Shown here piece after piece: positions 2,095 through 22,533 of a stretch of DNA of 64,000 nt. Numbering within the stretch: position 1 is the first letter of the stretch; each line of letters opens with the position of its first letter. A model generated the notes under the pieces. It ran no database searches. It had not been told where the DNA came from and saw nothing but the letters and a program-made list of their open reading frames with translations. Made by a program: the position numbers and the translations under genes. The stretch is from an uncultured Bdellovibrionales bacterium (GTDB taxonomy: Bacteria; Bdellovibrionota; Bdellovibrionia; Bdellovibrionales; UBA1609): contig CALLAU010000003.1 in the NCBI GenBank assembly GCA_938002015.1, positions 4,084 through 68,083 on the forward strand, in the 5' to 3' direction.

Positions 2095-2231
2095 ACCTAT
2101 TTACTCCCGTCTTGAAACTGTTGCCAAAGCACTGATTTTAAGCAAAATAACGCCATGACATAAGTCCTGATCTCTATCATGTAATCCGGCTTTTTATAAA
2201 CGTTTTTTAGGCTTTTTCCGATAGAATTAGC

Positions 2232-4368: not shown

Positions 4369-5097
4369 ATGAAGCTCTTTGATAAATCTAGAAGTGAAAT
4401 GACCATAGCAAAAGATTGCCCTTGGTATGAAGCTCAACAAACCTATGGAGCACCAAACGTAAATTGGTGTGAAAAAACTCAGTGCACCTACATAAATGAG
4501 CCTGCAAACACCTATAGTAACCTTGGTCTTATTTTTATTGCGCTTTTATTGCTAACTAAAATTAAAAATAAACTTGTTCAGCACTTTAGCATTCTTGTAT
4601 TAATAATGGGTATAGCTTCCGGGGTTTATCACGCAACCAATAACTACTTTACTCAATTTATCGATATTATAGGCATGAATTTTGTTAGTAGCTTTTTACT
4701 AACATTTTCACTTATTAGAGTTTTAAAGAAAGAGCACTTAAAGTTTTACACTCTCTATTTCTTTATAACAGCATGTAACACATTATTATTATTTATAATG
4801 GAATCTAATGGAATTGCTTTTCAGATTATTTTCTTTCCACAATTTTTTCTCACACTTATACTTGAAGCCATAATTTACTTTAAAAATCGTAATTTAAAAA
4901 AACACACCTTCTTCTTAATCGCATTAAGCTTCATAGCTGTTGCACAAACTGCAGCACAAATAGATCTTAAAAAAGTTTATTGTAATCCAGGTAATCTTAT
5001 TTTACATGGTCATGTTATCTGGCACCTACTTTCTGCTGTAGGTATGTTTTTTTTCGCTCTACACATCAATCACTTTTCAGATAAAATTAAAGACTAA
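4369..5097 (+). CDS. Multi-pass membrane protein, ceramidase-like (alkaline phytoceramidase family)
   Basis: Several hydrophobic helices and conserved His residues ('GVYHATNN', 'HGHVIWHLLSA') as in ceramidase/PAQR-type membrane hydrolases. The assignment is tentative. Confidence 0.4.
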   Translation: MKLFDKSRSEMTIAKDCPWYEAQQTYGAPNVNWCEKTQCTYINEPANTYSNLGLIFIALLLLTKIKNKLVQHFSILVLIMGIASGVYHATNNYFTQFIDIIGMNFVSSFLLTFSLIRVLKKEHLKFYTLYFFITACNTLLLFIMESNGIAFQIIFFPQFFLTLILEAIIYFKNRNLKKHTFFLIALSFIAVAQTAAQIDLKKVYCNPGNLILHGHVIWHLLSAVGMFFFALHINHFSDKIKD

Positions 5098-5105
5098 AAA
5101 TTATA

Positions 5106-5957
5106 TTAAATATTTTTAAGAGCATGGATAAACCTATCTGAACTCGGTGGATCAATTCTAAAATATAATGAGGGCTCAACTAACTCTAGCTCAATTAACC
5201 TTTGCCCCTCTTTGGTTTTAAGCATATCAACTCTTGCATATAAGAGTTTTTCACCAATGGAGTCTACCACACGCTGAGCCTCATTAAGTTCTTCTTCATT
5301 TGGAGTATATTGACTTAAAGCGCTGCCATACTCTTCTTGAACTCTAAAGTCCCCTTTTTTTGGAACTTTTTTTACAACGTGGCTTAATTCATTGTTAAAG
5401 AAAAGATAAGAAATTTCTCCTTCTAAAACTTCTTCTATAAAAGGCTGTACAAACCAGTCTTCTTTTTTCTCAAGAGATTCAAATTTATCTATCATTTCTG
5501 CTTTACTTAAAATTTCAATTTTCTCAGCACTTGCACCTACAACGGGCTTAATGACCATTTTAACTAAAGGAAGATTTATAAGTTTATCTTTAAAAGATTC
5601 TAAATCTTCATCTTCAAGAAAAATACTTTCAATAACTTTTATACCGCTCTTAGATAAGTCTTTTAAATACGTTTTCCTTGAATTCCACTTTACAATAGAA
5701 CTTGAGTTTAATAGTTTACAGCCACTTTCTTTAATACTCTCTAAAACATTTAAAAATTCTTCTAAACGCTTGGTATAGTCCCAAGTGGTTCTAATCACAG
5801 CATAGTCATAGTCACTCCAATTAACTGACTCATTTGACCATGAGATCACATCAAGACTGTCTTCAGGACAAATTTTCTTAAAAGACTCTAAAGCCAGTTC
5901 ATCATCAACAACATAATCAGAAAGATCATCACAAGTTAAAAAAACGTATTTTTTCAT
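5106..5957 (-). CDS. ATP-grasp domain protein (glutathione synthetase/RimK-like)
   Basis: 283-288 aa ORF with an ATP-grasp-like C-terminal half (...VIKPVVGASAEKI...WFVQPFIEEV..GEISYLFF...ARVDML...LIELELVEPSL). The ATG at 5957 follows GAGG. The ORF-track start is 5972. Confidence 0.55.
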   Translation of the reverse strand: MKKYVFLTCDDLSDYVVDDELALESFKKICPEDSLDVISWSNESVNWSDYDYAVIRTTWDYTKRLEEFLNVLESIKESGCKLLNSSSIVKWNSRKTYLKDLSKSGIKVIESIFLEDEDLESFKDKLINLPLVKMVIKPVVGASAEKIEILSKAEMIDKFESLEKKEDWFVQPFIEEVLEGEISYLFFNNELSHVVKKVPKKGDFRVQEEYGSALSQYTPNEEELNEAQRVVDSIGEKLLYARVDMLKTKEGQRLIELELVEPSLYFRIDPPSSDRFIHALKNI

Positions 5958-6346
5958 AAAAAACCTCATCAAGTAAGAAAATTAATAAAACTTATATATT
6001 ATTGCATATGTACATGGGAAGCTAATTCCTTAGCAGGTAATCAAAAACTGCTCTCTATTAAAACTTCCTTAGGCAAAACAAGCTTTACCCTCAGTATTAG
6101 TAATAAATCACTCACATATGGTTAAATACGTAAAAGACTAATTTTATCTCACTTTTAGACTTTCGACTAAAAAGCTTTCAACTTTTATTTTAAAACTTAA
6201 TCTTATTTCTTTAGAAATAGGTTATTAGTTTACACACTCTTTACATATTTAATATTTACAATAAAATCTAAATTCTTAATCATATTAACAAATGCGACTT
6301 TAGAGTTTATGATTAAAAGTATTAAAACCAACAAAGAGAGCACCCT

Positions 6347-7024
6347 GTGAATCATATCCTGTACTTAGAAGATGACCCTATATTAGGTGAAAGTTTAAAA
6401 CTGAATATGGAACTTGAAGGCTATCAAGTAACCTGGGTTAAATCACTTAAGCAAACAAGAGAACTTGCAAAATATGAAGCATATGACATAGCTATCCTCG
6501 ATTTAGGCCTTCCTGATGGAAGTGGTCTAAATATCTGTAAAGACATTAGAAAAAAAGAAGTCCATATTCCTATAATAATACTTACAGCTCAGCTTGATGA
6601 AGAAGTCGTTGTTGAAAGCTTAAATGCAGGAGCAAATGATTACGTTAAAAAGCCTTTTAGCAACAAAGAGCTCTTTGCTCGCATACGAGTTTCACTCAGA
6701 AAACCTAACCAAGAAAACGAAAAAATAAAATTTAAAGACATCACTCTCATACTAAACCAAAGAAAGTTTATGTATAAAAATAAAGAAATTACTTTAAACA
6801 GAAGAGAGTATGACCTCTTAAAAGTACTTGTTGAAAAAGCTGAAACGGTTGTAACACGCGAGCAGATGATTAGCTTTGCTGGGCTTGGTGAAGACGTTAT
6901 TGATAGAACAGTGGATTCTCATTTAAGCCACATTAGATCAAAACTTAGAAAAGAAGGCGTTGAAAACATTCAAATTAAATCTGAATATGGTCTTGGCTAC
7001 AGAATGGTGTCTCTTGAAAAATAA
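6347..7024 (+). CDS. OmpR-family response regulator
   Basis: REC domain (LYLEDD...ILDLGLPDGSG...VKKPF) plus winged-helix Trans_reg_C (ITLNRREYDLLKVL...VDSHLSHIRSKLRK...GLGYRM). GTG start. Confidence 0.85.
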   Translation: MNHILYLEDDPILGESLKLNMELEGYQVTWVKSLKQTRELAKYEAYDIAILDLGLPDGSGLNICKDIRKKEVHIPIIILTAQLDEEVVVESLNAGANDYVKKPFSNKELFARIRVSLRKPNQENEKIKFKDITLILNQRKFMYKNKEITLNRREYDLLKVLVEKAETVVTREQMISFAGLGEDVIDRTVDSHLSHIRSKLRKEGVENIQIKSEYGLGYRMVSLEK

Positions 7025-8510
7025 ACTAAGCTCTCCTTTTTTGCGATACCTCACGCTAGGAACATCGATTTCTTTCATCGTTATTATTTTATCCATCTTA
7101 AGTCTTCAAATTGTAAAACAAGTTACTCAAGAGGATAGTATTCAAAAGTTTACCAGACCTCCTGAAATCATTTCTTTTTTTATTAAGAACACTCCTAAGG
7201 ATAAAAGAATTCAATTAATTAATGATTTAAACGCTTCTCATAGAGCGAATTACCCATTTAAGGTTTTACTAACAAACTCTATTGGAGACATTCTTGCTCC
7301 AAAAGAAAATGTAGTAAAAAAAATTGATATAGATACTTTCTTACCTCTCTTTGAGTTTCATAATAAAAAAATAAACCATCAAAGAAATCACAAGAAAAGT
7401 AATATGTTTTCACTCCACAACCTCCTTACTCCTCTGAGACCAACTAGACATAGACCACCACCAAGGCATCTTAATGAAGCACCTAATTTTAAGTTTAAAC
7501 TCATAGATTCAAATAACTTCCTTGTTTTCCAAAGAAAAAACTTAAACATTCAAAATAACACAAAGAAAAGATTTTTCTTTAGCCTCCTTGCTCTTATATG
7601 CGCTCTTACACTTGGAATAGGCCTTACAATTACGTTCATGTTTCTCTCATTTAAAAGAAAAACCCTTGTCATTGATAATATCATTGAAAAGCTAAAAAGC
7701 GGAGATTTAAAGGCTCGCATTCCTGTAGGAAGAATTGATGAGTACAGCCAAACTGCCTATAGATTTAATGACATGGCTGAAGAGATTGAGAGCCTCGTTA
7801 ATTCTCTTAGAATCACTGAAAACTCGAGAAAGAATTTAATGAGAGAGTTAGCTCATGATTTAAGAACTCCAATTTCTTCATTAAAAAACTGTATTGAAAT
7901 GGTTAAAGAAAAGTCTAATCAACTCTCTGAAGATAAGAGAAATCAGCTTCTTAGTATCTCTTTAAAAGAAACTGAGTACTTTTCACTTCTAGTTGACGAT
8001 CTCTTATTTTTAGGTCAAGTCAATGAACCACGGTACCAGAAAGACTCTCATGAAATTTTCATTGACGACCTTATTCAAATTGAAGTGCAAAATCTAAAGG
8101 ATAGATACAGTAATATAAATTTCATTTTTAATGGCAAACTAAATCAAACTCCTTTTAAAGGTGATCGAAAATTAATAACTCGCTTGGTTAGAAACGGCTT
8201 AGAAAATGCATGTTCGTTTGCAAAAAATAAAGTTACTATTAGCACAGAAATTATACCTAATAAGAAATTTAGAATAAATATCGAAGATAACGGTCCGGGG
8301 TTTAGTGCAGGCTCCTTGGTTGATTTTGGAAAGAGAAAGTATAGTAGAGAAGTAGCAACTAGAGAATCTAATAGAATCTCTATTGGTCTTGGATCTGTTA
8401 TTATGAAGTCTATAGTAAGTTCTTATCGAGGTGAACTTAACGCTTCTAACGTGCTAGAAGACAACCACGTTAAAGGCGCTCTTCTTACGATCACTCTACC
8501 TTCAGTTTAA
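6987..8510 (+). CDS. Sensor histidine kinase (TM-periplasmic-TM, HAMP, HisKA, HATPase_c)
   Basis: H-box 'ELAHDLRTPISSL', N box 'RNGLENA', G boxes 'EDNGPGF' and 'GLGSVIM'. The ORF-track start 6960 overlaps the regulator. ATG 6987 or TTG 7014 is the more likely start. Confidence 0.8.
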   Translation: MVLATEWCLLKNKLSSPFLRYLTLGTSISFIVIILSILSLQIVKQVTQEDSIQKFTRPPEIISFFIKNTPKDKRIQLINDLNASHRANYPFKVLLTNSIGDILAPKENVVKKIDIDTFLPLFEFHNKKINHQRNHKKSNMFSLHNLLTPLRPTRHRPPPRHLNEAPNFKFKLIDSNNFLVFQRKNLNIQNNTKKRFFFSLLALICALTLGIGLTITFMFLSFKRKTLVIDNIIEKLKSGDLKARIPVGRIDEYSQTAYRFNDMAEEIESLVNSLRITENSRKNLMRELAHDLRTPISSLKNCIEMVKEKSNQLSEDKRNQLLSISLKETEYFSLLVDDLLFLGQVNEPRYQKDSHEIFIDDLIQIEVQNLKDRYSNINFIFNGKLNQTPFKGDRKLITRLVRNGLENACSFAKNKVTISTEIIPNKKFRINIEDNGPGFSAGSLVDFGKRKYSREVATRESNRISIGLGSVIMKSIVSSYRGELNASNVLEDNHVKGALLTITLPSV

Positions 8511-8996: not shown

Positions 8997-9551
8997 TTAT
9001 TTCTTAAGAAGGTACTTGTTTACTATTTCAGTATGCTTTTCTCCTGCTATAAGAGGTAAACTTGCAAAAAATTCTACACCACACTTTTCTTCTAAGTCAG
9101 GATCAATAAAAAAATGCATCTTCTTTCGACCTGGAATAACAATTGGCTCACCTGTTTCTGGGTTCACTCCCTTTCTTTCAGCTTGTACATCTAAATATAT
9201 TAAGCCAAAACCACTCATAAGATAAAAACCTTTAGATTTTAAATTCTCTAAAAGTTCTTTATCTAAATCTAATTTTTTCTCTAAAACAGTCTCTGCTTCA
9301 TCAGGATTTTTTTCCAAAAGCCAATCTTTAAAATGCTGGTGACTTCCTGGCTCTAATCTTTTTGGGTGTAGCTGTACTATATTTAAAAAGCTATTTTGTA
9401 TTGAAACCTCTAGACCTGCCATTTTATTAAAACCTATAAAAGCAGGGCTTGAAAAATCCTTTAAAAACTCCGACATCAACTTAATCACTTCATTCATAAA
9501 CTCAAACTCCCATGCTTCTAACAACATATACTTTATTAACTCAGACCACAT
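8997..9551 (-). CDS. Protein with C-terminal HU/IHF-like DNA-binding arm and unknown N-terminal domain
   Basis: The C-terminal 'ERKGVNPETGEPIVIPGRKKMHF' resembles the HU/IHF beta-arm signature (R-N-P-x-T-G-x-x-I-x-I-P). The N-terminal ~110 aa are unrecognised. Confidence 0.4.
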   Translation of the reverse strand: MWSELIKYMLLEAWEFEFMNEVIKLMSEFLKDFSSPAFIGFNKMAGLEVSIQNSFLNIVQLHPKRLEPGSHQHFKDWLLEKNPDEAETVLEKKLDLDKELLENLKSKGFYLMSGFGLIYLDVQAERKGVNPETGEPIVIPGRKKMHFFIDPDLEEKCGVEFFASLPLIAGEKHTEIVNKYLLKK

Positions 9552-9703: not shown

Positions 9704-10056
9704 GGGGGCGCATTTGGTTTCGACGTGGGTGTTGAAGCTTAAGGAGCATGCCGGGGAGCATGAGGACCTCGTAAAAACATGCATTATAGTAATCGGCAAC
9801 GATTCAAACTTTGCTTTAGCTGCCTAGTCAGTTTAGCCGTGAACTCTTTCTGTGGTTTCGAGAGAGAAGTTCATGTCACTTAAGAGACCTCGACTCTAAA
9901 TTGCGCCTCATGGTTTAGAGTTTAAATAAAGTGAAGCAGGAATACAAAAAGGTTGTCTGTGGTCGCTTTGTATTTGTCATAAATCACTGACTAAGCATGT
10001 AGCGCCTTAATGTGAATCGCTTGCGGACGGGGGTTCAACTCCCCCCGCCTCCACCA
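9704..10056 (+). ncRNA. ssrA: tmRNA (transfer-messenger RNA), one-piece
   Basis: The 5' GGGGGCG pairs with the 3' CGCCTCC-ACCA, including the G3:U alanine-identity pair. T-arm GGGGGTTCAACTCCCCC. Internal tag ORF 9795-9827 = GNDSNFALAA*. The 5' 'TTTCGACG' region is typical of tmRNA. Confidence 0.92.
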
Positions 10057-10059
10057 TTA
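10049..10059 (+). repeat. att core copy 1 (attL) inside the 3' end of ssrA
   Basis: CTCCACCATTA. The same 10-11 nt recur at 16429-16438 and 17236-17246. Confidence 0.6.
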
Positions 10060-10243
10060 AAGCAAAAGAATAGCAGTTTTCTGCTAAATAATAAAAATCA
10101 AATAAAAACAATAAGTTAAGAAGAGCTCATAACAGCTTCTAAGTTAACCATTTCCCATAAATTCCTATTAAATCACGGTAGTTGCAAAAATTGTCTTTAC
10201 GGCTGTCTTTACAGCTTTAAATTTTGATTAGTAATTTATGGCT

Positions 10244-10276
10244 CCTCAATAAGAGAAAACTCATCTCTATTTGAGG
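10244..10276 (+). promoter_or_regulatory. Imperfect inverted repeat upstream of the island XRE gene
   Basis: CCTCAATAAGAGA (10244-10256) / TCTCTATTTGAGG (10264-10276). 11 of 13 positions are complementary and the loop is 7 nt. It overlaps a GAGGA that could be the RBS. Confidence 0.3.
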
Positions 10277-10316
10277 ATAGTTGTCATCGAACAAGTTTCT
10301 TTTCCCGAAAGGATTA

Positions 10317-10610
10317 ATGGAAATGAAACTAGATAAAACCATCTCAAAACTTTGTAAGACTGAAGGATTAACTTTATCTGCTTTAGCTAAAAAAGCTAAG
10401 GTTCCTACACAAACACTTCATGCATGGACAACTGGGCGAACATCAATTAACCCCGATCAAGTCAAAGCCGTAGCAAATATTTTAAAAGTCTCAACCCATC
10501 GTCTTCTATTTGATGAACCCGACCCTTACGCCCATCAAGCTGAAGAAGTTCTTGAAGAAATTTTCAAAGGAGACGTTAGAGTGACTTTAGAAAGAATAAA
10601 GAGGAGATAG
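10317..10610 (+). CDS. XRE-family helix-turn-helix regulator (island-encoded)
   Basis: HTH 'LTLSALAKKAKVPTQTLHAWTTGRTSINPDQVKAVANILKVSTHRLLF'. The start is uncertain (TTG 10281, ATG 10317 or 10323). Confidence 0.7.
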   Translation: MEMKLDKTISKLCKTEGLTLSALAKKAKVPTQTLHAWTTGRTSINPDQVKAVANILKVSTHRLLFDEPDPYAHQAEEVLEEIFKGDVRVTLERIKRR

Positions 10611-10614
10611 CTTA

Positions 10615-11031
10615 GTGATATTTTTATTCTCTGTACTGTTTATCAATTTATTCCCCAGACATGCTTTACCTTCGACAGTAATAGAAAAATTATATGATTT
10701 GCCAAAAAATCACTGTATTGAGATTAAACATCTACGTTGGTCTATAGTGCAAAAAGTTTCAGATCATGAATACTTTGCTCAGGGAGATGGAACAGCATCT
10801 TTAGGTTACGCAATAATTAAAACAAAAAAAGCCATTTACAGTGGTACCGGCATTCCTCTTGGAATATCAGTTAGAAAAGTAGGATCAACACTTGTTACTT
10901 TAAGCAACGGCTTTACTAAAAATGCTTCAATATGGAAAGAATGCAACTATGATGTTAACGCCGAGTGTGCAATTACGCCTTATGGCAGAATTGTAAAACC
11001 GAATCGAACCACACAAAAACCATGCAATTAG
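10615..11031 (+). CDS. Hypothetical small secreted protein
   Basis: 138-aa ORF starting 5 nt after the XRE stop, with a hydrophobic N-terminus (IFLFSVLFINLF). No recognisable family. Confidence 0.4.
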   Translation: MIFLFSVLFINLFPRHALPSTVIEKLYDLPKNHCIEIKHLRWSIVQKVSDHEYFAQGDGTASLGYAIIKTKKAIYSGTGIPLGISVRKVGSTLVTLSNGFTKNASIWKECNYDVNAECAITPYGRIVKPNRTTQKPCN

Positions 11032-11047
11032 TCTTTGAGGTTAATAA

Positions 11048-11605
11048 GTGAAAATTTTTTTTATAAGTTTCTTAGTAATATTACGGTATTTTATAATTGG
11101 AATATTAATCATATCTGTTTTTCTTTACATGCTAGGCTGGAATGAAACAACCAGAAAGGCACCTAAACATGAAATAAAGCTTGATAGTGAGTGGTCAACT
11201 TACAACCGAATAGATAAAATACGTAATAATTCATATCAAATTTATTCAATAAAAAGTCTCAACTCTTTTGAGCTTAAATTCCCCTACGATGGCTTGCAAT
11301 ATGCATCTATTGATTTGGTAAAATATCAAGGTGAATGGACATCCGCAGCTTTTATGATTGAAAGAGGAATTTTTGCTTGCAAATATGATTTTACTAAGGA
11401 CAACCCTTGTATATTTAAAGTTAAGTTCGGTAACTCGTCGGTTAAGAATTTTGTAATGCAAAATTCACCTGATAATACAGATCAAATCAAGATTTTTAAA
11501 AACTCTAAAAAATTTATAGACGAGCTTCTGAAAGTTAATGGAGTTATTATTAACGAAGCCGGCGTACATCAATTCGAATTCAAGTGGCAAAATATGCCAA
11601 ATTAA
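11048..11605 (+). CDS. Hypothetical membrane-anchored protein
   Basis: 185-aa ORF starting 17 nt after the previous stop, with an N-terminal TM helix (FFISFLVILRYFIIGILIISVFLYML). No recognisable family. Confidence 0.4.
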   Translation: MKIFFISFLVILRYFIIGILIISVFLYMLGWNETTRKAPKHEIKLDSEWSTYNRIDKIRNNSYQIYSIKSLNSFELKFPYDGLQYASIDLVKYQGEWTSAAFMIERGIFACKYDFTKDNPCIFKVKFGNSSVKNFVMQNSPDNTDQIKIFKNSKKFIDELLKVNGVIINEAGVHQFEFKWQNMPN

Positions 11606-11625
11606 GCTTAGGTTTTTACACAAAG

Positions 11626-12540
11626 CTATCTCTCAAATTGTCTAACTTGATTAACCAGCAATGGACCTATTTGCTGTGTTACACAGCCTTGTTTAAAATT
11701 CTTGAATTTTTCGACCAATTCCTTCAGTTCTTCAGACTCAATACTAGATATAACATACTGTTCAGCTGCTTTAATAACTAGCTGATTTAGTTTTTTTACT
11801 AAAGAAACTGTACATTCTTCAGAAGAGTCTTCTGAACCATTAAAAGAAGCTGAACCTGTAGCGACTAACAGCCCTAATTGAGGTGTTAAAGGGAAATATA
11901 TAATACAATTATGCCCAACCCCTTCATTTATATAACACACAGGGTTGTCAGAAGTTACAAAAGGAGTATCCGAGTTATTCTGCAAAAATACAAATTTTGA
12001 TTGCGAGAACCTCTCTATAGTTTTAGGCAAACCTTTTAAAGCTATCAATTCAACCCAGTCAGTTTCAGTAATCAAAGCCTTTAAATCGACACCTTCAAGC
12101 TCTTTAGGTCGAGGCGGAAACGCACCTTGCTTCTCAAGTATTTTAGCTGTTAAGTCAATTAAGGACTCTGTAGCTAACTTTCTTTGCTGTTTATTAGAAG
12201 GAGTAGCTTGAATAAGAACAGCCAAATATTCAGATATTATTTTTTTCATTTCTAAGTACGCTGCTCGCCTTCTTGTACCCTCTAAGAAAGCTTTTAAGTT
12301 TTCTGTCATTTGAAACCAGTTATTCTCAATAGGAACAAGAACCTCCTCAATTAACCTAGGATTTGACTCAATGAGTTTGTTTGTTGAGCCATTTCGGATA
12401 AAGCAAATCTCACCTCTTCCTTTTAAACGACAACTTAAACTTTGCTTATCATACACCCAGAGTTTTTTCTCTCCTGAAGGTAAGAAAGGCTTCATATATA
12501 CTTTAGAAAGAAAATGATCGTTTGGCTTCTTTTTACCCAT
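11626..12540 (-). CDS. DUF4238-family protein (family reported as a single-gene anti-phage system)
   Basis: N-terminal 'DHFLSKVYMKPF' (the H-x-[LV]-P/S-x-x-Y-[LM]-x-x-F opening of DUF4238) and central 'PFVTSDNPV' signature. Recognition is by motif only. Confidence 0.6.
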   Translation of the reverse strand: MGKKKPNDHFLSKVYMKPFLPSGEKKLWVYDKQSLSCRLKGRGEICFIRNGSTNKLIESNPRLIEEVLVPIENNWFQMTENLKAFLEGTRRRAAYLEMKKIISEYLAVLIQATPSNKQQRKLATESLIDLTAKILEKQGAFPPRPKELEGVDLKALITETDWVELIALKGLPKTIERFSQSKFVFLQNNSDTPFVTSDNPVCYINEGVGHNCIIYFPLTPQLGLLVATGSASFNGSEDSSEECTVSLVKKLNQLVIKAAEQYVISSIESEELKELVEKFKNFKQGCVTQQIGPLLVNQVRQFER

Positions 12541-12622
12541 CGAAGTAATTAATAAAGTAAATATTAAAAAAGTTCAAATAGAAGCACTTTTCATATTATC
12601 TAAAGTAGATAAAAATAGATTC

Positions 12623-12862
12623 ATGGGCAAACCAATAGGATATCCAAAAACAGGTGGTCGCAAGGCCGGCACTCCAAATAAGAAATCTAGGCATTTGATC
12701 CAGTTACTAGAGGAACTCAATATTAACTTAATTGAACAAATAATACTCGAAATACCGAATTTAAAACCTGAAGAGAAAGTAAGAACCTGCCTTCAATTAA
12801 TGCCCTTTGTTTATCCAAAGAAGAAACCTGAAGAGTTTGATTCATTAGATCCACTCTTTTGA
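12623..12862 (+). CDS. Small phage-type basic protein (GGRK-GTPNK motif)
   Basis: 'KTGGRKAGTPNKKS...LLEELNINLIEQ...LMPFVYPKKK' resembles small N-terminally basic proteins common in phages and integrative elements. Its 3' end overlaps the convergent ORF 12811-13683 by 52 nt. Confidence 0.4.
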   Translation: MGKPIGYPKTGGRKAGTPNKKSRHLIQLLEELNINLIEQIILEIPNLKPEEKVRTCLQLMPFVYPKKKPEEFDSLDPLF

Positions 12863-13683
12863 TTATATATTTTGCTAATCACAAAACTTCCTATTTCTTC
12901 TCCAGATTCTATCATCCTATGGAACTCATCAATTGCCTCAGAAAAAGTAATTCTACCAATGCCATCTTGATGCTTTTCATAAATCTCTACAAGACTATTA
13001 AAGTGCTTCTCAGCTTGTGCCTTTATGCTTGAGATATAGCCTTGCTCCCATCTAGCGTTTTCTTCATGAGTAGGAACAGGGAAATTGAAGTCTTCAAATT
13101 TAATTTTTGGACCTATTGCACTGTCTACAAAATGATTATCATAGGAAATTTGCAGCTTTCCACCTGGACGAATAAGCTCTCCAATTTTATTTCGAATTTG
13201 TCTATTTCCAGTTCCTTTGCTGCCTTTATAAAACATTAAATAAGCATACAAATAAAATGCTAATCCACCAAAGAAAGGCCTCCCTCTTCTCTTTCCTTTA
13301 AAGGGATCATAAGGCTCATCATCAATATACTCTACTAATAGATTGTCTTCTACAGTATTGAGAACCTGAGGTAAATGGCTTATCCAATCATCAACTTTAA
13401 GACCCTCATTTAATGTTTCAAATTTGATTTCATCTAATATGCTTCCAGCTTCAAAAGCTTTTAATTTACTAGATAAGCTAATGAGAGAATTATGTAGATC
13501 GTCTACTCTTCTTGCATCTACCTGAGTTGCCGCCTCCGCATAAGCTCCCGTTTCCTCAATAAGCATAACGCTAAGTAAAGAGCTTTCAATATTAACGACT
13601 CTTTTTTCAACTTCAATTTGCGCATAAATAACAGATTTTTCTTTTTTTTCTTTCTGCTTTTTTTCTTTTTCTATATCGAGCAC
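12811..13683 (-). CDS. Hypothetical protein, no recognisable family (290 aa)
   Basis: Long ORF with a GTG start preceded by GGAGAG. Lys/Glu-rich N-terminus and a basic patch 'KGKRRGRPFFGG'. No motif I can assign. Confidence 0.5.
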   Translation of the reverse strand: MLDIEKEKKQKEKKEKSVIYAQIEVEKRVVNIESSLLSVMLIEETGAYAEAATQVDARRVDDLHNSLISLSSKLKAFEAGSILDEIKFETLNEGLKVDDWISHLPQVLNTVEDNLLVEYIDDEPYDPFKGKRRGRPFFGGLAFYLYAYLMFYKGSKGTGNRQIRNKIGELIRPGGKLQISYDNHFVDSAIGPKIKFEDFNFPVPTHEENARWEQGYISSIKAQAEKHFNSLVEIYEKHQDGIGRITFSEAIDEFHRMIESGEEIGSFVISKIYNQKSGSNESNSSGFFFG

Positions 13684-13794
13684 AGTCTCTCCTATATTTC
13701 TTTACCAGTGCTCGAAGGAAAAAGATTTGGTCACATTAAGTTTCCCACAATCTCACAGACACTAATAGAGGAATCAAATTAAATCGTTACTTAA

Positions 13795-13812
13795 CTAATT
13801 ATTAATAATTAG
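13795..13812. promoter_or_regulatory. Perfect 18-bp palindrome in a divergent promoter region
   Basis: CTAATTATTAATAATTAG is its own reverse complement. It lies between the divergent ORFs 12811-13683(-) and 13846-14559(+). Confidence 0.35.
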
Positions 13813-13845
13813 AAGAGTACTGCTTTATTTAAAAGGAGTTATTTA

Positions 13846-14559
13846 ATGCCTAGTAATTTTAGTAATAAAGATAATTTTCATGAAAAATATTTATGTAATA
13901 CATATTATGAAAATAGCCAAATATCAGAAAAAAAGAAAGAATCTAAATTGAGAATTGATTTTATATATTCGACTTATCCAAGATTATTTAACTCAAGAAG
14001 GGCTAAAGTTCCTAAATTAATTCAGCCAAGCTTTAAAACATTAAAGTCAAAGTATTTTGAACTCACTAATAAGCTGAACTCAGCTAACCCAGAAGCTATG
14101 AGGACACGTGCAGAAAGTCGTTTTAAAACCAAGCTGAGACTTCATTCAAAAAAACAACTAAAACAGAGTATTTGGATTGGTTCACACTGCATAGATTTAT
14201 TTATTCCAAATATTAGGTCTCATCATAAATATCCAAAGAAAGTAATGCGAGGTCTTGCTATTGAAATCGATGGGGATTGTCATAAATATGAGCAAAAAGG
14301 AATTAAAGATGAAAGAAAAGGGGCTGAGCTTTTAGATTTAGGTATCGGAACAATTCATATACCTAACTGGGAATTCAATGAAACGACTATAAAAGACATA
14401 TTAAAATCAATATCAAACTTTGAACCATTAGATAGTCGAGAAAGAATAAGGCTTTGGACACGCATTTTTACTTATACATTAGCGACACACCTCACACATA
14501 AGGAATTTTTTCAAATTTTTAAGGTTAAACCTGATCTTATTGGAGATAAAAATGAGTGA
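13846..14559 (+). CDS. DUF559 / Vsr-like (PD-(D/E)xK) endonuclease-domain protein with Lys-rich N-terminal extension
   Basis: 'HCIDLFIP...GLAIEIDGDCH...DERKGAELLDLGIGTIHIPNWEF' matches the DUF559 pattern (D-F/L...IE-x-DG-x-x-H...D-x-x-R/K...L-x-x-x-G). Strong RBS AAGGAG. The 3' end overlaps the excisionase-like gene. Confidence 0.6.
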   Translation: MPSNFSNKDNFHEKYLCNTYYENSQISEKKKESKLRIDFIYSTYPRLFNSRRAKVPKLIQPSFKTLKSKYFELTNKLNSANPEAMRTRAESRFKTKLRLHSKKQLKQSIWIGSHCIDLFIPNIRSHHKYPKKVMRGLAIEIDGDCHKYEQKGIKDERKGAELLDLGIGTIHIPNWEFNETTIKDILKSISNFEPLDSRERIRLWTRIFTYTLATHLTHKEFFQIFKVKPDLIGDKNE

Positions 14560-14770
14560 TGATAAAAATAAAATGCTCGATGCTTGTTCTTTGACAACTG
14601 AATTGAAATGGTTAACTCACCAAGAGGCGGCTGACTACCTTAGAATAAGTAAAAAAGCTTTATATAACCTGTGCTCTCAAGGCAAGATAGAGCCCCATAA
14701 ACTTCTTTCAGATCGTAGAAACCGTTATCTAGTCTCAGAGCTTAATGAGCTCTTCTTTAAGAAATATTAA
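14552..14770 (+). CDS. Excisionase/AlpA-like helix-turn-helix protein (HTH_17 type)
   Basis: 'LTHQEAADYLRISKKALYNLCSQGKIEPHKL'. GGAGA RBS 5 nt before ATG 14552. It sits immediately upstream of the integrase. Confidence 0.7.
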   Translation: MSDDKNKMLDACSLTTELKWLTHQEAADYLRISKKALYNLCSQGKIEPHKLLSDRRNRYLVSELNELFFKKY

Positions 14771-14781
14771 AGGAGAAAGAA

Positions 14782-15897
14782 ATGGGAATAAAATTTCTTA
14801 AAGAGAAAAAAATTTACAGGGTGAGTTACTCAAAAAGAAACCCTAAAACAAGTAAATCTGTTAATAGAATGAGAACTCATTTTAAAAATCAAACAGGACT
14901 AAAAAAAGAGATCAGTACTTTAGCTGAGGCGAAGAGAGTTTATAATAAGTTAGTAATTGAAGTTGAAGAGGCAATCATTAGACAAGACATTCCTAACTGG
15001 AAACAACTGTTAGAAGAATTTGCACCCTATTATTTAAAAACTGGCGTTGAAACAAAAACAGTTGATACTTACATGAGTTGTCTGAATAAACATACGCAGT
15101 GCTGGTATAAAATCGGTGTGGAAAAGATTAATGACTCTATGATTAGAAATTTAATAAATGGACTAAGCTCTAAAAGCAAAAGTCATCAAAAAAACATGCT
15201 CAAATTCATCAGAAGAGTTTTTCAATTTGCTTTAGAAAAAAATTACATCAGTCGTAATCCGACACCAAATATGAAGTTTAAGTTTGGCAGTAAAAACTCT
15301 AAAGTTCTTTCTAGGACAGAGGCTAGTAAACTGTTAACTTTTGCCAAAATAAATAATTCCTCTTGGTACTATCATTGGTTAATGGCTTTATATACAGGAA
15401 TGAGGAATGGTGAACTTTTTGCTTTAAGATGGAAAGATATAAGTTTTGAAGAAAAACAGATTAAAATCCAACAATCTTGGAATAATAAGGACGGCTTTAA
15501 ATCTACCAAATCTGGTGACGAGAGAATAGTTCCTTTAGCATCTGAACTGATACAGGACTTAAAAGAACTTAGACTTACCAGCAAAGACAATGAGTTTGTA
15601 TTACCAAGGCTAAACAAGTGGATAAAAGGCGAGCAAGCTAGAGAACTTAGAAAGTTTCTAGTGGGAGTTGGCCTTCCAGAGATTCGTTTTCATGATTTAA
15701 GAGCAACTTGGGCCACATTACTTCTTTCTGAAGATGTACCACCAGTTAAAGTTATGGCAATGGGTGGATGGAAAGATATTAAAACTATGATGATCTACAT
15801 TCGCAAAGCCGGTATTGATTTACGTGATGCAACTTCTTGTCTTCAATTAGTTGATAAAGCAACTAATACTAAAGTCTTGAATCTGATAACACGTTAA
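14782..15897 (+). CDS. int: Tyrosine-type site-specific integrase
   Basis: Catalytic-domain motifs 'ALYTGMRNGELFALRWKDI' (Arg), 'RFHDLRATWATLLL' (H-x-x-R) and 'GGWKDIKTMMIYIRK' (Tyr). N-terminal SAM-like core-binding region. Confidence 0.88.
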   Translation: MGIKFLKEKKIYRVSYSKRNPKTSKSVNRMRTHFKNQTGLKKEISTLAEAKRVYNKLVIEVEEAIIRQDIPNWKQLLEEFAPYYLKTGVETKTVDTYMSCLNKHTQCWYKIGVEKINDSMIRNLINGLSSKSKSHQKNMLKFIRRVFQFALEKNYISRNPTPNMKFKFGSKNSKVLSRTEASKLLTFAKINNSSWYYHWLMALYTGMRNGELFALRWKDISFEEKQIKIQQSWNNKDGFKSTKSGDERIVPLASELIQDLKELRLTSKDNEFVLPRLNKWIKGEQARELRKFLVGVGLPEIRFHDLRATWATLLLSEDVPPVKVMAMGGWKDIKTMMIYIRKAGIDLRDATSCLQLVDKATNTKVLNLITR

Positions 15898-15928
15898 CAG
15901 ACTGAGCTCTTCGTGTTCAAATACTTAC

Positions 15929-16366
15929 ATGGCAGAGAAAAAGTTCGATAAATGTGACTGTTTTTCCAGTTTAGTTGGCAATCTCGGTAAGTTTTTACTT
16001 GGCTTGGCCGCTGTAATTGGAGCTTGTAAATCGACTCAAATCGCTCAGATCATTTACAACAATCAAACACAGTCACAAAATCAAAGCTGTAGCTTTCACA
16101 TCTCCCCCAATACTTACAAAGAAATTGGTAAGGTTGCTCAAAAACTTACTGAGGTAGAAGATCAAGATGCTAATCCAATCATAATTGAATATTTTCATGA
16201 AAGTGGAGATGATAAAGCTTTAAATATCTCACCCGCTTTCAAAGCTAACCTTTTAAAAGACCTAAAAGCAGCGAAAACAGCAGATTCAAAGGCGGATGTA
16301 CTAGAAGCTTACTACCTCAAAACAAAAATCAGAGATGATAAAATTAAAAAAGCAATTGGTCCGTAA
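15929..16366 (+). CDS. Hypothetical membrane-anchored protein (145 aa)
   Basis: ORF 32 nt after int with one hydrophobic helix (LGKFLLGLAAVIGA), followed by an 8-bp hairpin AGAATAGT/ACTATTCT (16381-16404). No family recognised. Confidence 0.4.
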   Translation: MAEKKFDKCDCFSSLVGNLGKFLLGLAAVIGACKSTQIAQIIYNNQTQSQNQSCSFHISPNTYKEIGKVAQKLTEVEDQDANPIIIEYFHESGDDKALNISPAFKANLLKDLKAAKTADSKADVLEAYYLKTKIRDDKIKKAIGP

Positions 16367-16428
16367 CCAATTGTCTTTATAGAATAGTGAAGTTCAACTA
16401 TTCTATATATTTAGGAAGACATCTTTGT

Positions 16429-16438
16429 CTCCACCATT
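16429..16438 (+). repeat. att core copy 2
   Basis: CTCCACCATT, identical to ssrA 10049-10058. Confidence 0.5.
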
Positions 16439-17245
16439 TAACAAGTTTGAGAACCTTAAATTTGACTGATTAAAGTCTAGAAGTAATAAATATGGATGAA
16501 AACACATTATACTATTTTTTTTCAACGATTGCCCAGTGCTTATCTGCCCTAGTTTCACTACTTGGGGTTTTTGTAGTTTTTAAGCTTCAAGACCTAAACA
16601 GTAGATTAGAGTCTAGAGCTGAAAAAATTTCCAACGCCTTTGTTAAGAAAAATTGGAAGTTTTTAATAAGAGCTGAAGGTGCTGAAAATAGAGTTGAAAA
16701 TCACATAGATGATGTTTCTCGCTGCAAAGAATTATGGGGAATTTTTTCTGATGCGTTAACTGGAAATATTAATAAGTATGAAGGTTTTTTTTACGGTCAG
16801 TTTAACCCTCAACGCAATAGTGGTGAGAGAGAGCGAACCGTAAGGAGTCAAATTCAAAAATTCTTAGGCTGGAAAGCTGAGTTTGATGCTTTATTCAAAG
16901 ATTTCAATAACAAGCCTAAAATTATTAAATCCTTGAAATTTGAAAGCGCCTTCGGATTAAGTCTTATCACATTATGTTTTGTCGCCTTACTTATTCCCGA
17001 GATGTGTCTATCAATTAATATTCTATGGTCAATTGTATTAATTTTTTTCGTCGTCACATCTATTTACATATGTCTGGTATACAGCTTAATTAAGAAGTGT
17101 TTTGAATATAAATAACTTTGGAAAGTTCATTTTCAATATTCAGTTTTTTATGACTTTTACAACAATCAGTGCACAACAATCAGCCTATAATTAAATATAT
17201 AGGGACTTGAATAGGTTCGACATCGAACAGCTCTGCTCCACCATT
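16439..17245. mobile_element. att-flanked ~0.8 kb mini-cassette (remnant or second tandem element)
   Basis: Flanked by att copies 2 and 3. It contains a single ORF and no recombinase. Confidence 0.45.
16492..17115 (+). CDS. Hypothetical 3-TM membrane protein (207 aa)
   Basis: N-terminal TM (YYFFSTIAQCLSALVSLLGVFVVF), a ~110-aa soluble middle and two C-terminal TM helices. No family recognised. Confidence 0.45.
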   Translation: MDENTLYYFFSTIAQCLSALVSLLGVFVVFKLQDLNSRLESRAEKISNAFVKKNWKFLIRAEGAENRVENHIDDVSRCKELWGIFSDALTGNINKYEGFFYGQFNPQRNSGERERTVRSQIQKFLGWKAEFDALFKDFNNKPKIIKSLKFESAFGLSLITLCFVALLIPEMCLSINILWSIVLIFFVVTSIYICLVYSLIKKCFEYK

Positions 17246-17246
17246 A
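17236..17246 (+). repeat. att core copy 3 (distal attR)
   Basis: CTCCACCATTA, identical to ssrA 10049-10059. It is followed by a short hairpin and ~150 nt collinear with the sequence following copy 1. Confidence 0.55.
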
Positions 17247-17452
17247 GACAAAGGTTTTTGCTGCTTTCAGCGAAAATCTAATTTTCAAAAGTAAAAACAA
17301 TAACTTAACCAAGGAAAGGTTCCATACCCCTCTATTCTCAAATCACGTTAAATCACAGTGAATAATGGCATTTGCAACAACTCGTAGTAATCGGCTGTAG
17401 TTAACGAAAAATGGTTACTACAAATCTTCGTATTTTGTGCTATTCACATTTC

Positions 17453-18025
17453 ATGGCAAAGCTTTTAAAGAAAACTAAACGACTTATTCTACGCCCGCTG
17501 GAGACCAAAGACTTTGAAGTGTGGCGAACAGCCAATTCAAAAAAACTCCCCTCTCAAAATAAATGGGATGACGGAAGGCTTCCCGAGAAGGACTTCACCA
17601 AAGCTAAATTTAAAGCATTACTTAAAGAACAAAGTGATCATAGAAAAGCTGATCAATATTATAGACTTGGAGTTTTTAATAAAAAAACAGGTGCTCTAAT
17701 GGGCACTGTCTCAGCAATGAATGTTGTTAGGGGCGTTACACACTCTTGTTATCTAGGCTACTTCATTAACAACAACTACTGGGGGCAAGGCTATGGTAAA
17801 GAAGCAGCGCTAGGTATGATTCACTTCTGCTTTAAAGAGATGAAGCTTCACAGGGTTGAAGCTGGAGTTGAACCAACTAACAGGCGATCTATTATGCTTG
17901 CAAAATCACTGGGACTTAGAAAAGAGGGCCTAAAGAAGCGTATGATTTTTTTAAGAGGAGCCTGGCTAGACTGCACTATGTACAGCGCTACGTGTGAGGA
18001 GTTTGGGTATAAATGGAAAACTTAA
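17453..18025 (+). CDS. GNAT N-acetyltransferase, RimJ/RimL-like
   Basis: 'RLILRPLETKDFEVW...' opening typical of Acetyltransf_3, 'WGQGYGKEAA' acetyl-CoA loop and 'LHRVEAGVEPTNRRSIMLAKSLGLRKEG'. ATG 17453 is preferred over the ORF-track start 17411. Confidence 0.75.
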   Translation: MAKLLKKTKRLILRPLETKDFEVWRTANSKKLPSQNKWDDGRLPEKDFTKAKFKALLKEQSDHRKADQYYRLGVFNKKTGALMGTVSAMNVVRGVTHSCYLGYFINNNYWGQGYGKEAALGMIHFCFKEMKLHRVEAGVEPTNRRSIMLAKSLGLRKEGLKKRMIFLRGAWLDCTMYSATCEEFGYKWKT

Positions 18026-18540
18026 AACAACATGAGGTTATTTATAAAGAAGCCTCAATCAAAGATTGGGATAACTTAGCTAAATTCAGAAGTAGATATT
18101 CTTTTGAGGACTTTAACAAAGCCAAAAATACTTTTGAAATAGATTTTTTAAACAGCGAGAACAATAAAAACAAACTTTTTATTGCAAGCCATCAAGATAA
18201 ATTAATTGGCTATGGTAGAGTTGGCCTACACACTCACAGTGACAGTAATGAGATTTATGGTCAAACTTCAGAAGTTCCTGAAGGTTATTACACAAAAGGC
18301 CTTTTGATCGATGAAGCTTTCAGAGGAAAAGGTATTGGGCGCACTTTAACAATACTTAGAGAAAACTGGGTCAAAGATTTCGATAATAAAATCTACTGCA
18401 TCCTAAGTCTCAAAAATAATAACTCTGTTCAAATGCACCTCAAACTTGGCTTTAAAGAGATTAAGAAAAACCTCTGCTATCCAAGTGATAAACCTAATGA
18501 AATGAGTGGCTGTTTATACATTAAGGAAATAGCAAATTGA
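18013..18540 (+). CDS. GNAT family N-acetyltransferase
   Basis: 'LLIDEAFRGKGIGRTLT' (Q/R-x-x-G-x-G/A motif) and 'NNNSVQMHLKLGFKE'. It overlaps the upstream GNAT by 13 nt. Confidence 0.7.
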   Translation: MENLKQHEVIYKEASIKDWDNLAKFRSRYSFEDFNKAKNTFEIDFLNSENNKNKLFIASHQDKLIGYGRVGLHTHSDSNEIYGQTSEVPEGYYTKGLLIDEAFRGKGIGRTLTILRENWVKDFDNKIYCILSLKNNNSVQMHLKLGFKEIKKNLCYPSDKPNEMSGCLYIKEIAN

Positions 18541-19481
18541 ATTTTGATTTGGAAATAGTTAAATCTTTTTGGAATATTAATGGAGAATTAAACTTTGTCA
18601 GACAAGTTGCCAACTGGGTTTACTTCAGTCCCTCTACAGATAGTTACATTAGAATAACGAATGAAAATCATCGTTCTAAAAAGCAAATAGAATCTGAAAT
18701 ACAATGGATGTCTCATGTAAATAATTTTGAATTAAACACAGTTAGAGTTATACCTTCATCACAAGGCAATCAAATTGAAACTATCGAACACAAAAATAAA
18801 AAGTTCCATCTGATCAATCTTACAAGAGCAAAAGGGACGCGACAGATGTTACGCAATGAAGACTCAGAATTTTTTAAGAAATGGGGAGAAACTACAGCCA
18901 AACTTCACTTAGCAGCTAAAAAGTATAGCCCAAAAAATGTTGAAAGCCGCCCCATTTGGTCTGATGACTCTATCCATAAAGATATCTTAAATATAAGAAA
19001 ACCATCAGACGGTGAAATTTATAAAAAATCTCTTGAAATTGAAAATCTTATAAGCTCGTTACCAAGAGATTCAGAGTCCTTTGGACTTATACATTCAGAC
19101 TTACACACTGGAAACTTTAATGTTGATGAGAAACAAAATATTACTTTATTCGACTTTGATGACTCAGTTTATAGTTGGTTTATTTATGATATTGCAGTTA
19201 TCTTCTGGAGCTTCCAATTCAGTGAAATACAAGAGCATGAGGCCAAAATAGAGTTCTTAAAAGGTTACAGTAGTAAAAATACTCTTAATTCTATTTGGTT
19301 TGAGAGGCTTGAAAACTTTTACGCTTACAGAGTTATTCAAATTTACTATTTTGCTTTAAAAGAAATAGAAAAATCAAACTTTAATGAAAATGTTATTCAA
19401 AAATTTAAACACTCCTTAATATCAACTTATAGTTACTTTAAATTTGAGAGCAGAAACAAGCGTTTTGAGTTAAATTTTTAA
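18537..19481 (+). CDS. Aminoglycoside-phosphotransferase / choline-kinase-fold small-molecule kinase (APH family)
   Basis: Brenner/catalytic motif 'GLIHSDLHTGNFNV' and 'TLFDFDDSVYSWFIYDIA'. The TTG start overlaps the previous stop by 4 nt. Confidence 0.7.
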   Translation: MNFDLEIVKSFWNINGELNFVRQVANWVYFSPSTDSYIRITNENHRSKKQIESEIQWMSHVNNFELNTVRVIPSSQGNQIETIEHKNKKFHLINLTRAKGTRQMLRNEDSEFFKKWGETTAKLHLAAKKYSPKNVESRPIWSDDSIHKDILNIRKPSDGEIYKKSLEIENLISSLPRDSESFGLIHSDLHTGNFNVDEKQNITLFDFDDSVYSWFIYDIAVIFWSFQFSEIQEHEAKIEFLKGYSSKNTLNSIWFERLENFYAYRVIQIYYFALKEIEKSNFNENVIQKFKHSLISTYSYFKFESRNKRFELNF

Positions 19482-19791
19482 CTTGAAAAAAAATCTAAAG
19501 CATAATGATTTATAATAATCGCAAAATAATTACTTAATTGACTTTAAGGCCAAGTTCTTCTTTGATTACTTTATTATGATATTTTTGAATGCAAGAGAAC
19601 ACCAGCTGTGCTTGGCAATATGACCAACCCAACCACTTTATGATAGATAACTTAGTCCAATGAGATAGCTCTTTTTAGTTTGTGTATTAAAAAAGGTATA
19701 AAGCAATCATACATATTATATTTCGTTTAGAAGACAAGAGAACAAATTTAACGGGAAAAATTATTAAGAGCAGATTTTAAAGGAGAAATTT

Positions 19792-20565
19792 ATGAATTCA
19801 AAGAATATATTAATAACAGGCGCCACTGATGGCATTGGTTTAGAAACAGCTAGAAAACTAAAGTCACTAGGACATAACATTATTATTCATGGTCGTAGTG
19901 CTGAGAAACTAGAAAAAGTTGCTGCTGAATTAAATGCAAAATCATTTAAAGCTGATTTATCAAAGCTTTTAGAAGTAGGTGAAATGGCAAAATCTATCTT
20001 AGAAGAATATGAACAAATCGATGTTCTCATCAACAATGCAGGGGTTTTAAAAACATCACATCCTAGAACTGAAGATGGTTATGATGTTCGTTATGTAGTA
20101 AATACGTTTGCTCCTTACTTACTAACAAAGAAATTACTTCCTCTATTAAAAAATGGAAGAGTGATTAACCTCTCATCTGCAGCTCAAGCTTCAGTAGATT
20201 TTAATGCTTTGCTAGGAAAAGTTGAGATGAGTGATTTTGAAGCCTACGCCCAAAGCAAATTAGCTATTACAATGTGGTCAAGATATATGGCAGATCAAGT
20301 CGGCAGTGATGGACCTGTGATTATTGCTGTTAACCCGGCTTCACTACTTGGAACAAAAATGGTTAAAGAAGGATTTAACACTCCTGGAAATGATATTAAT
20401 ATTGGTGTAAATATTCTTACAAGTCTGTCACTAGAGGCTAAGCATGCTGAGCACTCTGGAGAGTATTACGATAATGATAATAAAAGATATGCACCACCTC
20501 AAGCTGACGGGCTTGATGATGAAAAAGCTAAACAAATTGTTGAATTAATTGAGGGGATTATATGA
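19792..20565 (+). CDS. Short-chain dehydrogenase/reductase (SDR)
   Basis: '[16 protein letters not shown]' (TGxxxGxG), 'NNAG' and 'YAQSK' (YxxxK). Confidence 0.8.
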
Positions 20566-21332
20566 AATATTTTTTATTCATCTTCTTAACTTTTAACCTT
20601 CTTATAGGGTGCGCTCACACACCACAAAAAGAAGATTCTGCTAAAATCCTTTCAATTACAGATGTAAAGTGGGAGAAATTAAATCCAGCTAGAGGCAGCC
20701 AAAGCCCCCAGGCAGCAACTCTATGGGGAGATCGAAAAGGTAGCACTGCTACTGGTTTTTTAGCAAAGTTTGTAGACGGGTTTTCCTCTCCTCCTCATAT
20801 TCATAACGTCTCATACAAAGCAATAGTTATTAAGGGACTTATTCATAATGATGATCCAAAGGCTGAAAAGATGTGGATGCCAAAAAGTTCTTATTGGACT
20901 CAACCTGCAGGAGAAGCACATATTACATCTGCAAAAGGACAAACTAACATTGCCTTAGTAGAAATTGATCATGGACCATACTTAGTCAAATCAACAAAAG
21001 AAAATTTTGATAATAACGAAAGACCTTTTAACATCCATAGCTCAAATATAATTTGGAAAGTCTTTAAGGGAGTAAAAGTTGCAGATATGTGGAAGAATAA
21101 GGAAGGTCGAGTAACCGGCTCCATGGTGAAGTTTAAAAACTCTCTTAAACTTGATAGTGAAAACACATACTTAGTGTTAATTGCTGGCAGTATGATATTT
21201 CAAAAACAAAGCCTTATGCCAGGGAGTTTAATAAAAATTGATAAAAAAACTCGCTCTTATTTTTCTTGTACTCAAGAAAGTGAATGTATTTTATATATAA
21301 AATCAGATAAAAACTTTAAGCTACAAAGATAG
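20562..21332 (+). CDS. Lipoprotein with cupin-like (DUF4437-type) domain
   Basis: Lipobox 'LLIGC' and '[29 protein letters not shown]' resembling DUF4437/ChrR-like cupins. ATGA overlap with the SDR gene. Confidence 0.45.
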
Positions 21333-21537
21333 GCGTCTTAGAGTTTTTCTTTACTAATTATTCTTCGTTTAGAGTATTTATTCATCATTTAGAACTTAGA
21401 ATTTAAGCAGCACTTAAAAAAAATCAAGCAGCCTTATCTTGCGCACTTCAGCAGCTCCTAAAACTAAGATCTTATTCGTGACAGTCTGCTAAATTTTAGA
21501 TTCAATACGTACCTAGCTTAAACAAAGGGATGCTTCT

Positions 21538-22521: not shown

Positions 22522-22533
22522 TACTTTGAGCTT

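Follow-up and report, generated by a model that had tools for sequence, protein, structure and literature searches.

A divergent DUF4238 gene as candidate cargo of a putative 6.4-kb ssrA-integrating element

Background

A gene resembling the DUF4238 family lies between a tmRNA gene (ssrA) and an integrase gene in the window, i.e. the whole stretch of 64,000 nucleotides that was analysed. The question raised by this locus is whether the gene is phage defence cargo of a mobile element, and whether the element as a whole can be called a defence island.

From the P2 hotspot of E. coli TA007, Rousset et al. (2022) obtained a one-gene clone, pFR101, whose DUF4238 protein conferred strong resistance to T7; its molecular function was reported as unknown (PMC9122126). 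The initial annotation of the locus described DUF4238 as validated as a stand-alone anti-phage gene in P2/P4 hotspots; the validation holds against T7 and for P2, but not for P4 (PMC9122126). It also gave the catalogue name as Rst_DUF4238, and the E. coli P2-hotspot protein is listed under this name with the mechanism unclassified. A literature search for a mechanistic study of DUF4238 returned none.

Results

The DUF4238 gene and its family

The gene under study is the following:

11626..12540, - strand: DUF4238 protein, cargo gene (304 aa, ATG start, intact ORF)

In the ORF list the translation opens with MGKKKPNDHFLSKVYMKPF and contains PFVTSDNPV, which had been read from the letters as the two signature blocks of DUF4238. 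This reading was confirmed by the Pfam HMM search, where PF14022 (DUF4238) matches the ORF with 82.6 bits and E = 4.3e-23 against a gathering cutoff of 27. The score is far over the cutoff and therefore far beyond chance, and the match is full length, spanning residues 7-266 of the ORF and positions 1-278 of the 281 in the profile.

Alignments and the structure model were made without the initiator methionine, which means that H8 and D197 correspond to H9 and D198 in ORF numbering. In a family alignment of 69 sequences, numbered without Met1, the best-conserved blocks are an N-terminal D/H plus F18, and T195-S196-D197-x-P199. The window protein retains all seven invariant columns of this alignment. 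Of the 59 positions conserved at 85% or more in its 68 relatives, 28 are retained in the window protein and 21 in the E. coli protein. A single-sequence search with the window protein found five relatives only, having 22-34% identity. The family itself comprises 5111 representative clusters at E <= 1e-3 (216 at E <= 1e-30), and members of so large a family need not all be defensive. On the basis of these comparisons we regard the window gene as a real, very divergent DUF4238 member.

The AF2 model of the protein is confident (pLDDT 89.6, pTM 0.88), and a search for a solved structure or known fold matching it found none. BFVD yields a single structural match, to a Stenotrophomonas phage Smp131 protein (E 6.5e-10). 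When viral contigs were scanned with the integrase, the DUF4238 protein and orf290 (the gene upstream of it), relatives of none of the three were found. A search for a promoter and a Shine-Dalgarno sequence at the locus gave nothing convincing, and the promoter/terminator scan was uninformative, as promoter-like sites were fewer than in shuffled sequence.

Comparison with the validated protein

The sequence of the validated protein (pFR101) was taken from Table S2 of PMC9122126. By BLASTP the window protein is 22% identical to it over 298 aa, with a pairwise E = 4e-8, and hhalign of a 69-sequence profile of the window protein's relatives against the validated protein gave a probability of 97.7% and E = 2e-12 over 264 columns. 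The two proteins belong to the same family (PF14022), are similar in length (309 aa in E. coli, 304 aa in the window) and are homologous over their full length. They share an N-terminal H-[F/Y]-L-S..Y..F block and the TSDNP block, and the residues common to both are H8, F18, E64, L67, E71, P113, T195-S196-D197, P199 and N251.

The system-specific PADLOC model DUF4238-Pers behaves differently on the two. It scores 718 bits on the validated protein, covering 309 of 309 positions, and 19 bits (E 1.9e-4) on the window protein, covering residues 8-119 only; other members of the family score 0-22 bits. The PADLOC comparison suggested along with the initial annotation thus ended under calling strength, and a tool of this type would not call the window gene. 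Judged from these scores, the window protein is a true homologue, yet outside the reach of DUF4238-Pers.

Like the validated gene, the window gene would be a single gene in the variable region of an integrated mobile element. The carriers differ, that of Rst_DUF4238 being a P2 prophage and that of the window gene a 6.4-kb ssrA element without phage structural genes, and the hosts are of different phyla.

Boundaries and att sites of the element

The features defining the element are:

9704..10056, + strand: ssrA (tmRNA), the integration target (ARAGORN; Rfam RF00023, 202.6 bits; tag peptide GNDSNFALAA)
10049..10058, + strand: attL core CTCCACCATT, the last 8 nt of ssrA plus TT (exact 10-bp repeat)
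16429..16438, + strand: attR core CTCCACCATT (exact 10-bp repeat)
16439..17245, + strand: remnant segment of 807 bp, ending in a third copy of the core CTCCACCATT at 17236..17245

The att repeat is only 10 bp long and was located through contig ends in the Logan assembly of run ERR9287626. Here the locus forms a separate contig of 6430 bp, identical (100%) to window 10029..16458. Logan graphs are built with k = 31, and branch nodes link contigs (PMC12424806). The contig starts exactly 30 nt (k-1) before the end of the first core at 10058, and its right end lies exactly 30 nt beyond the position where the second core starts (16429); a neighbouring contig of 47.9 kb from the same run begins exactly at 16429. 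A 10-bp repeat alone cannot break a graph with k = 31, and the sample must therefore also contain the join ssrA-CTCCACCATT-TAACAAG, i.e. the empty site. From this geometry of the assembly graph we infer, precisely but indirectly, an empty-site allele, with presence and absence of exactly 10049..16438, and we regard the segment as a discrete element, either polymorphic or in the course of excision. The expected empty attB junction is ssrA, CTCCACCATT and then TAACAAGTTTGAG, and the expected circular attP junction is ...CATCTTTGT, CTCCACCATT and then AAAGCAAAAG.

Over 16429..30565 (14.1 kb) the Logan assembly of this run differs from the window at five positions (20539, 21458, 21469, 21742 and 24477). 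This hints at strain heterogeneity in the sample, so that the empty site could stem from a second variant living alongside and need not mark an excision.

A long copy of the ssrA 3' end acting as attR was searched for at 23 nt with 3 mismatches and at 13 nt with 2 mismatches, and was found at neither setting. Base composition gives no island signal, the GC content being about 32-36% throughout. The integrase was also considered as part of a second element to the right; this was rejected, as the independent contig that bears int ends at the second core copy.

Beyond the second core, the sequence 3' of the third core (after 17245) resembles that 3' of ssrA, hairpin included. Segment 16439..17245 is probably the relic of an earlier insertion in a tandem arrangement, with the original host flank starting from 17246. 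The remnant holds an ORF for a membrane protein of 207 aa (16492..17115). On the other side, directly upstream of ssrA, lies a protein of 184 aa (8997..9551, - strand) in which a Bac_DNA_binding (HU/IHF-type) match covers residues 86-156 only, leaving an unusual N-terminal extension of about 85 aa.

The initial annotation had placed the gene inside an integrase-bearing element at ssrA, and this placement stands: the tmRNA gene at 9704..10056, the integrase at 14782..15897 and the core repeats are all found. Taken as an ssrA-integrating element, the locus has a tyrosine integrase with an excisionase, a direct repeat of the ssrA 3' end and the presence/absence geometry. It resembles known tmRNA-targeting islands in the insertion at the ssrA 3' end, the short direct repeat at the far end and the xis-int pair adjoining one att site, and differs from them by the very short core of 10 bp and by an int gene that is distal to ssrA and reads outward. 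No replication module (primase/helicase) was found within the element by Pfam and family searches, and no capsid redirection or packaging genes by PHROG and Pfam. In both respects it differs from P4-like and PICI-like satellites.

Gene content of the element

Besides DUF4238, the element contains the following genes:

10281..10610, + strand: XRE-type HTH_3 regulator, backbone (Pfam HTH_3, 35.5 bits)
10615..11031, + strand: orphan o138, hydrophobic N-terminus, possible cargo (no Pfam, PADLOC or PHROG match)
11048..11605, + strand: orphan o185, N-terminal hydrophobic segment, possible cargo (no significant family match)
12623..12862, + strand: o79, an ORF of 79 aa with a basic Gly/Lys-rich N-terminus GYPKTGGRKAGTPNKKS (ORF list; gene call in the Logan contig)
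12811..13683, - strand: orf290, diverged backbone gene, immediately upstream of DUF4238 on the same strand
13846..14559, + strand: orf13846, 237 aa, conserved backbone gene (homologues upstream of xis-int in sister elements)
14540..14770, + strand: excisionase/AlpA-like HTH_17 protein (Pfam HTH_17, 48.3 bits)
14782..15897, + strand: tyrosine integrase (Pfam Phage_integrase, 89.5 bits)
15929..16366, + strand: orphan o145, between int and attR (ORF list; gene call in the Logan contig; no family match)

The XRE regulator is 32% identical to the HTH gene of the sister element L130, and an HTH_3 gene is found at the equivalent position in two further sisters, L131 and L132. The gene orf290 lies 270 nt from DUF4238; it weakly resembles its positional counterparts in L132 (E 7e-7, 24% over 196 aa) and L131 (E 2.5e-4). 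Homologues of orf13846 lie directly upstream of xis-int in L131 (45% identity) and L132 (41%), and more distant ones (32-33%) occur in L136, L139 and L140. As these homologues give sub-threshold matches to MTES_1575, DUF2726 and DUF559, orf13846 probably has a PD-(D/E)XK fold of the Vsr/DUF559/MTES_1575-like kind. An HTH_17 excisionase upstream of int is conserved in 45 related loci.

No homologue of o138 was found in the sister loci and no family match for o79, and homologues of o138, o185, o79 and o145 appeared in none of the searches made. The o79 ORF is divergent from DUF4238 over a gap of 83 bp, and shares 52 nt with the 3' end of orf290.

Sister elements and the variable region

At E <= 1e-10 the integrase has 1269 relatives, the closest being 47-70% identical. 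Three sister elements only were compared in detail. L131 and L132 are bounded by the tmRNA gene on one side and by int and the core repeat on the other. The int gene of L131 is 57% identical, with a 15-bp repeat CCGTCTCCACCATTT situated 68 nt after it; that of L132 is 55% identical and is followed after 60 nt by GTCTCCACCATTT, which is the attR context of the window element and is common to L131 and L132. Beside the orf13846 homologue both have a leftward gene (277 aa in L131, 248 aa in L132) weakly similar to orf290. According to this comparison the backbone is an HTH_3 regulator and, further on, a leftward gene of the orf290 family, followed by a gene of the orf13846 family, xis and int in rightward order.

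The cargo is different in each case. In L132 a Zeta toxin gene lies directly downstream of the orf290 homologue, which is the position of DUF4238 in the window, and the variable part of L131 has a DUF2971 protein matching the PADLOC candidate PDC-S31 with 134.5 bits. DUF4238 was found in none of 83 related loci. Since the backbone is shared by sisters having different cargo, DUF4238 sits in the variable cargo region. A two-gene system formed by orf290 and DUF4238 was also considered, and was rejected as the main reading because positional and weakly similar counterparts of orf290 occur in sisters without DUF4238.

A rough survey also covered 27 loci with undefined element boundaries, taking in 145 ORFs upstream of xis-int. 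Among the recognisable ORFs replication genes predominate (Prim-Pol 5, DUF3987 5, AAA_25 3, Toprim_3/DUF5906 2), and the defence matches are a type I and a type IV restriction enzyme, PbeA and PDC-S31, one of each. Related elements (L130 at 4945..7095, L144, L148, L154, L172, L192 and L205) have an ORF of ~470-900 aa in place of orf13846. The large ORF of L130 is a primase-helicase (DUF7146/Toprim_3/DUF5906), and Prim-Pol/DUF3987 types are found elsewhere among the surveyed loci. The family seems to exist in two forms, one replicative and one minimal. As far as the gene comparisons go, the window element is a short-backbone variant without primase, and this variant recurs in L131, L132, L136 and L139/L140.

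In five further loci (L162, L182, L185, L201 and L208; int 42-45% identical) the distance from the tmRNA 3' end to int is at most ~0.7 kb, with int pointing away from the tmRNA gene, so that the placement of attP relative to xis-int is opposite to that in the window element.

As in P2/P4 hotspots, a conserved backbone flanks a region varying between sisters (DUF4238, Zeta toxin, PDC-S31). The window-type elements differ from P2/P4 in being much smaller (5.5-7 kb), and no capsid, packaging or helper-exploitation genes were seen in them.

Defence genes in and around the element

The initial annotation called the ssrA island a defence island on account of DUF4238. This was overstated, as there is no second known defence gene in 10049..16438, where PADLOC gave only generic HTH matches and the weak DUF4238 match; a defence island taken as at least two recognised adjacent defence systems is therefore not found within these limits. 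Nor can all the neighbours be treated as defence candidates through guilt by association, as had been proposed. The argument carries little weight for HTH_3, orf290, orf13846, xis and int because these are backbone genes that recur, by sequence or position, beside different cargo, while o138, o185, o79 and o145 remain true orphans.

Over the window as a whole, one ORF matches PADLOC's PDC-S01, an unvalidated candidate, with E 2.7e-93. This candidate is said to combine an ATPase with a fused PD-(D/E)XK domain, and the description fits the second of the following genes:

21538..22521: ParB_N-domain protein
22636..23775: AAA_14/DUF4143 ATPase

The match is therefore probably this AAA_14/DUF4143 gene, about 6 kb outside the element. 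In addition, one ORF of the window has helicase-type PADLOC matches (BrxHI, DpdF, Cas3, DrmD and DinG, E 1e-12 to 1e-22), which probably reflect generic superfamily-2 helicase similarity and not a defence system.

The contexts of six DUF4238 relatives were also inspected, a small and qualitative sample. One relative (P0003) is flanked by a BsoBI-type R-M pair, a reverse transcriptase gene and AbiEi/AbiEii, one (P0008) is among GmrSD_N, HEPN and HEPN-RES genes, and one (P0025) adjoins GmrSD_N; recognised defence genes thus adjoin three of the six. A fourth (P0062) is near a BglII endonuclease and transposases, and a fifth (P0004) is in a Dam/RadC/radical-SAM region resembling a mobile element. 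The closest relative (P0002, 34% identity) is in a chromosomal setting among housekeeping genes, between P-type ATPase/MgtC and cytochrome bd. At this last locus (L122) there is a DUF4238 paralogue 8 kb apart, the two genes being at 1378..2223 and 10001..10933. No conserved partner gene was seen across the six loci; in the window the gene 270 nt upstream is the backbone gene orf290. The sampled contexts favour a defence association for the wider DUF4238 family, though not necessarily a universal one.

Host

Named relatives of the integrase are few; they belong to Bdellovibrionota, Bacteriovorax and Bacteriovoracaceae. For the tmRNA, the best of the matches listed are Bdellovibrionales MAGs. 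A 28-mer of the ssrA T-arm/acceptor is conserved across many phyla, with no synteny among the matches listed. The exact lineage-specific ssrA 34-mer had no match in metagenome contigs. The sequence relationships indicate that the host is probably a low-GC, predatory member of Bdellovibrionota. The earlier suggestion of a predatory host is in keeping with the integrase and tmRNA relatives, which point to Bdellovibrionota, and falls short of proof.

Discussion

With moderate confidence we read the locus as a 6.4-kb ssrA-integrating element carrying a divergent DUF4238 gene as exchangeable cargo, which is likely to encode a single-protein anti-phage or toxin-like effector. On this reading, segment 10049..16438 is an integrative mobile element at the 3' end of ssrA, recombining via the 10-bp core CTCCACCATT. 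DUF4238 is its cargo, situated directly downstream of orf290 in the variable region bounded by this gene and the XRE regulator. The data themselves establish the family, the homology to the validated protein along its whole length, the limits of the element with their indirect presence/absence signature, and the variable architecture; the defence phenotype and the biochemical mechanism are proposed from these. By homology to Rst_DUF4238, the protein would act as a single-polypeptide effector against phages or competitors, from which element and host alike would profit. A conserved polar site may be formed by the N-terminal [D/H]-H-[F/Y] block, E65, E72, the T-S-D-N-P block and N252 (ORF numbering). 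Through it the protein would exert an enzymatic activity towards a target of phage or host origin, probably in an abortive-infection or toxin-like manner, and recognition would fall to the central helical insertion (residues ~62-180). As the fold searches found no match, the proposed site and mechanism are conjectures drawn solely from conservation. A defence role of the window gene is plausible in view of its homology and context.

The gene may instead serve the element itself, as a toxin for addiction or stabilisation or as a factor for exclusion rather than as a dedicated anti-phage gene, acting by post-segregational killing or by exclusion of competing elements at ssrA. L132 has a Zeta toxin, from a classical toxin-antitoxin family, at the equivalent position, and an element apparently able to leave its site would find a stabilising function useful. 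Yet an antitoxin-like partner is not apparent, since the small neighbouring ORF at 12623..12862 runs divergently and is not co-oriented, and the sole experimental datum for the family is phage resistance given by a single gene in E. coli. Addiction and abortive-infection defence are, moreover, compatible with each other. We consider this explanation unlikely as an alternative to a dedicated effector.

We likewise give a low probability to a non-defence cellular function, in which the gene would be carried by chance and the P2 protein would be a specialised offshoot of a heterogeneous family. This would agree with the position of the closest relative between P-type ATPase/MgtC and cytochrome bd genes, with the 5111 representative clusters at E <= 1e-3 and with a defence-specific HMM that barely detects the window protein or its relatives. 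It fits less well with a gene that occupies the variable part of a mobile element, with the recognised defence genes adjoining three of six sampled relatives and with the core motifs common to the window and validated proteins. Far less probable still is a third reading, with DUF4238 as non-functional cargo in decay and the element as a degenerate one whose replication module is gone. Many relatives in the integrase family do carry a primase-helicase upstream of xis-int while the window element has none, and a remnant segment follows attR. The ORF, however, is full length (profile positions 1-278 of 281) with all invariant residues kept, the presence/absence junction signature is found in an independent assembly, and the recurrence of the short backbone in L131, L132, L136 and L139/L140 marks a type and not a wreck. 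The reading that we prefer remains that of an exchangeable effector gene on a small ssrA element.

Conclusion

That defence genes are found in variable slots of integrated mobile elements is already well established, and this principle is unchanged; the element family with its variable cargo region is a modest new observation under it. More tentatively, and as a possibility that we hold to be open to considerable doubt, the elements may form an undescribed family of minimal (5.5-7 kb) Bdellovibrionota ssrA elements with a slot like that of the P2/P4 hotspots, in which DUF4238 would be an active anti-phage effector in a predator and the orphans o138, o185, o79 and o145 would include new cargo functions. 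If this is true, the slot beside the orf290-family gene would exchange single-gene modules such as DUF4238, Zeta toxin and PDC-S31. The element family provides a compact natural cargo slot in which further single-gene defence modules may be sought, and it offers clean att sites for mobility tests.

If the window gene is active, the validated defence range of DUF4238 would extend to about 22% identity, and the current defence-finder models for DUF4238 would be too narrow. DUF4238 defence would then also reach a lineage of predatory bacteria in which phage defence has been little studied.
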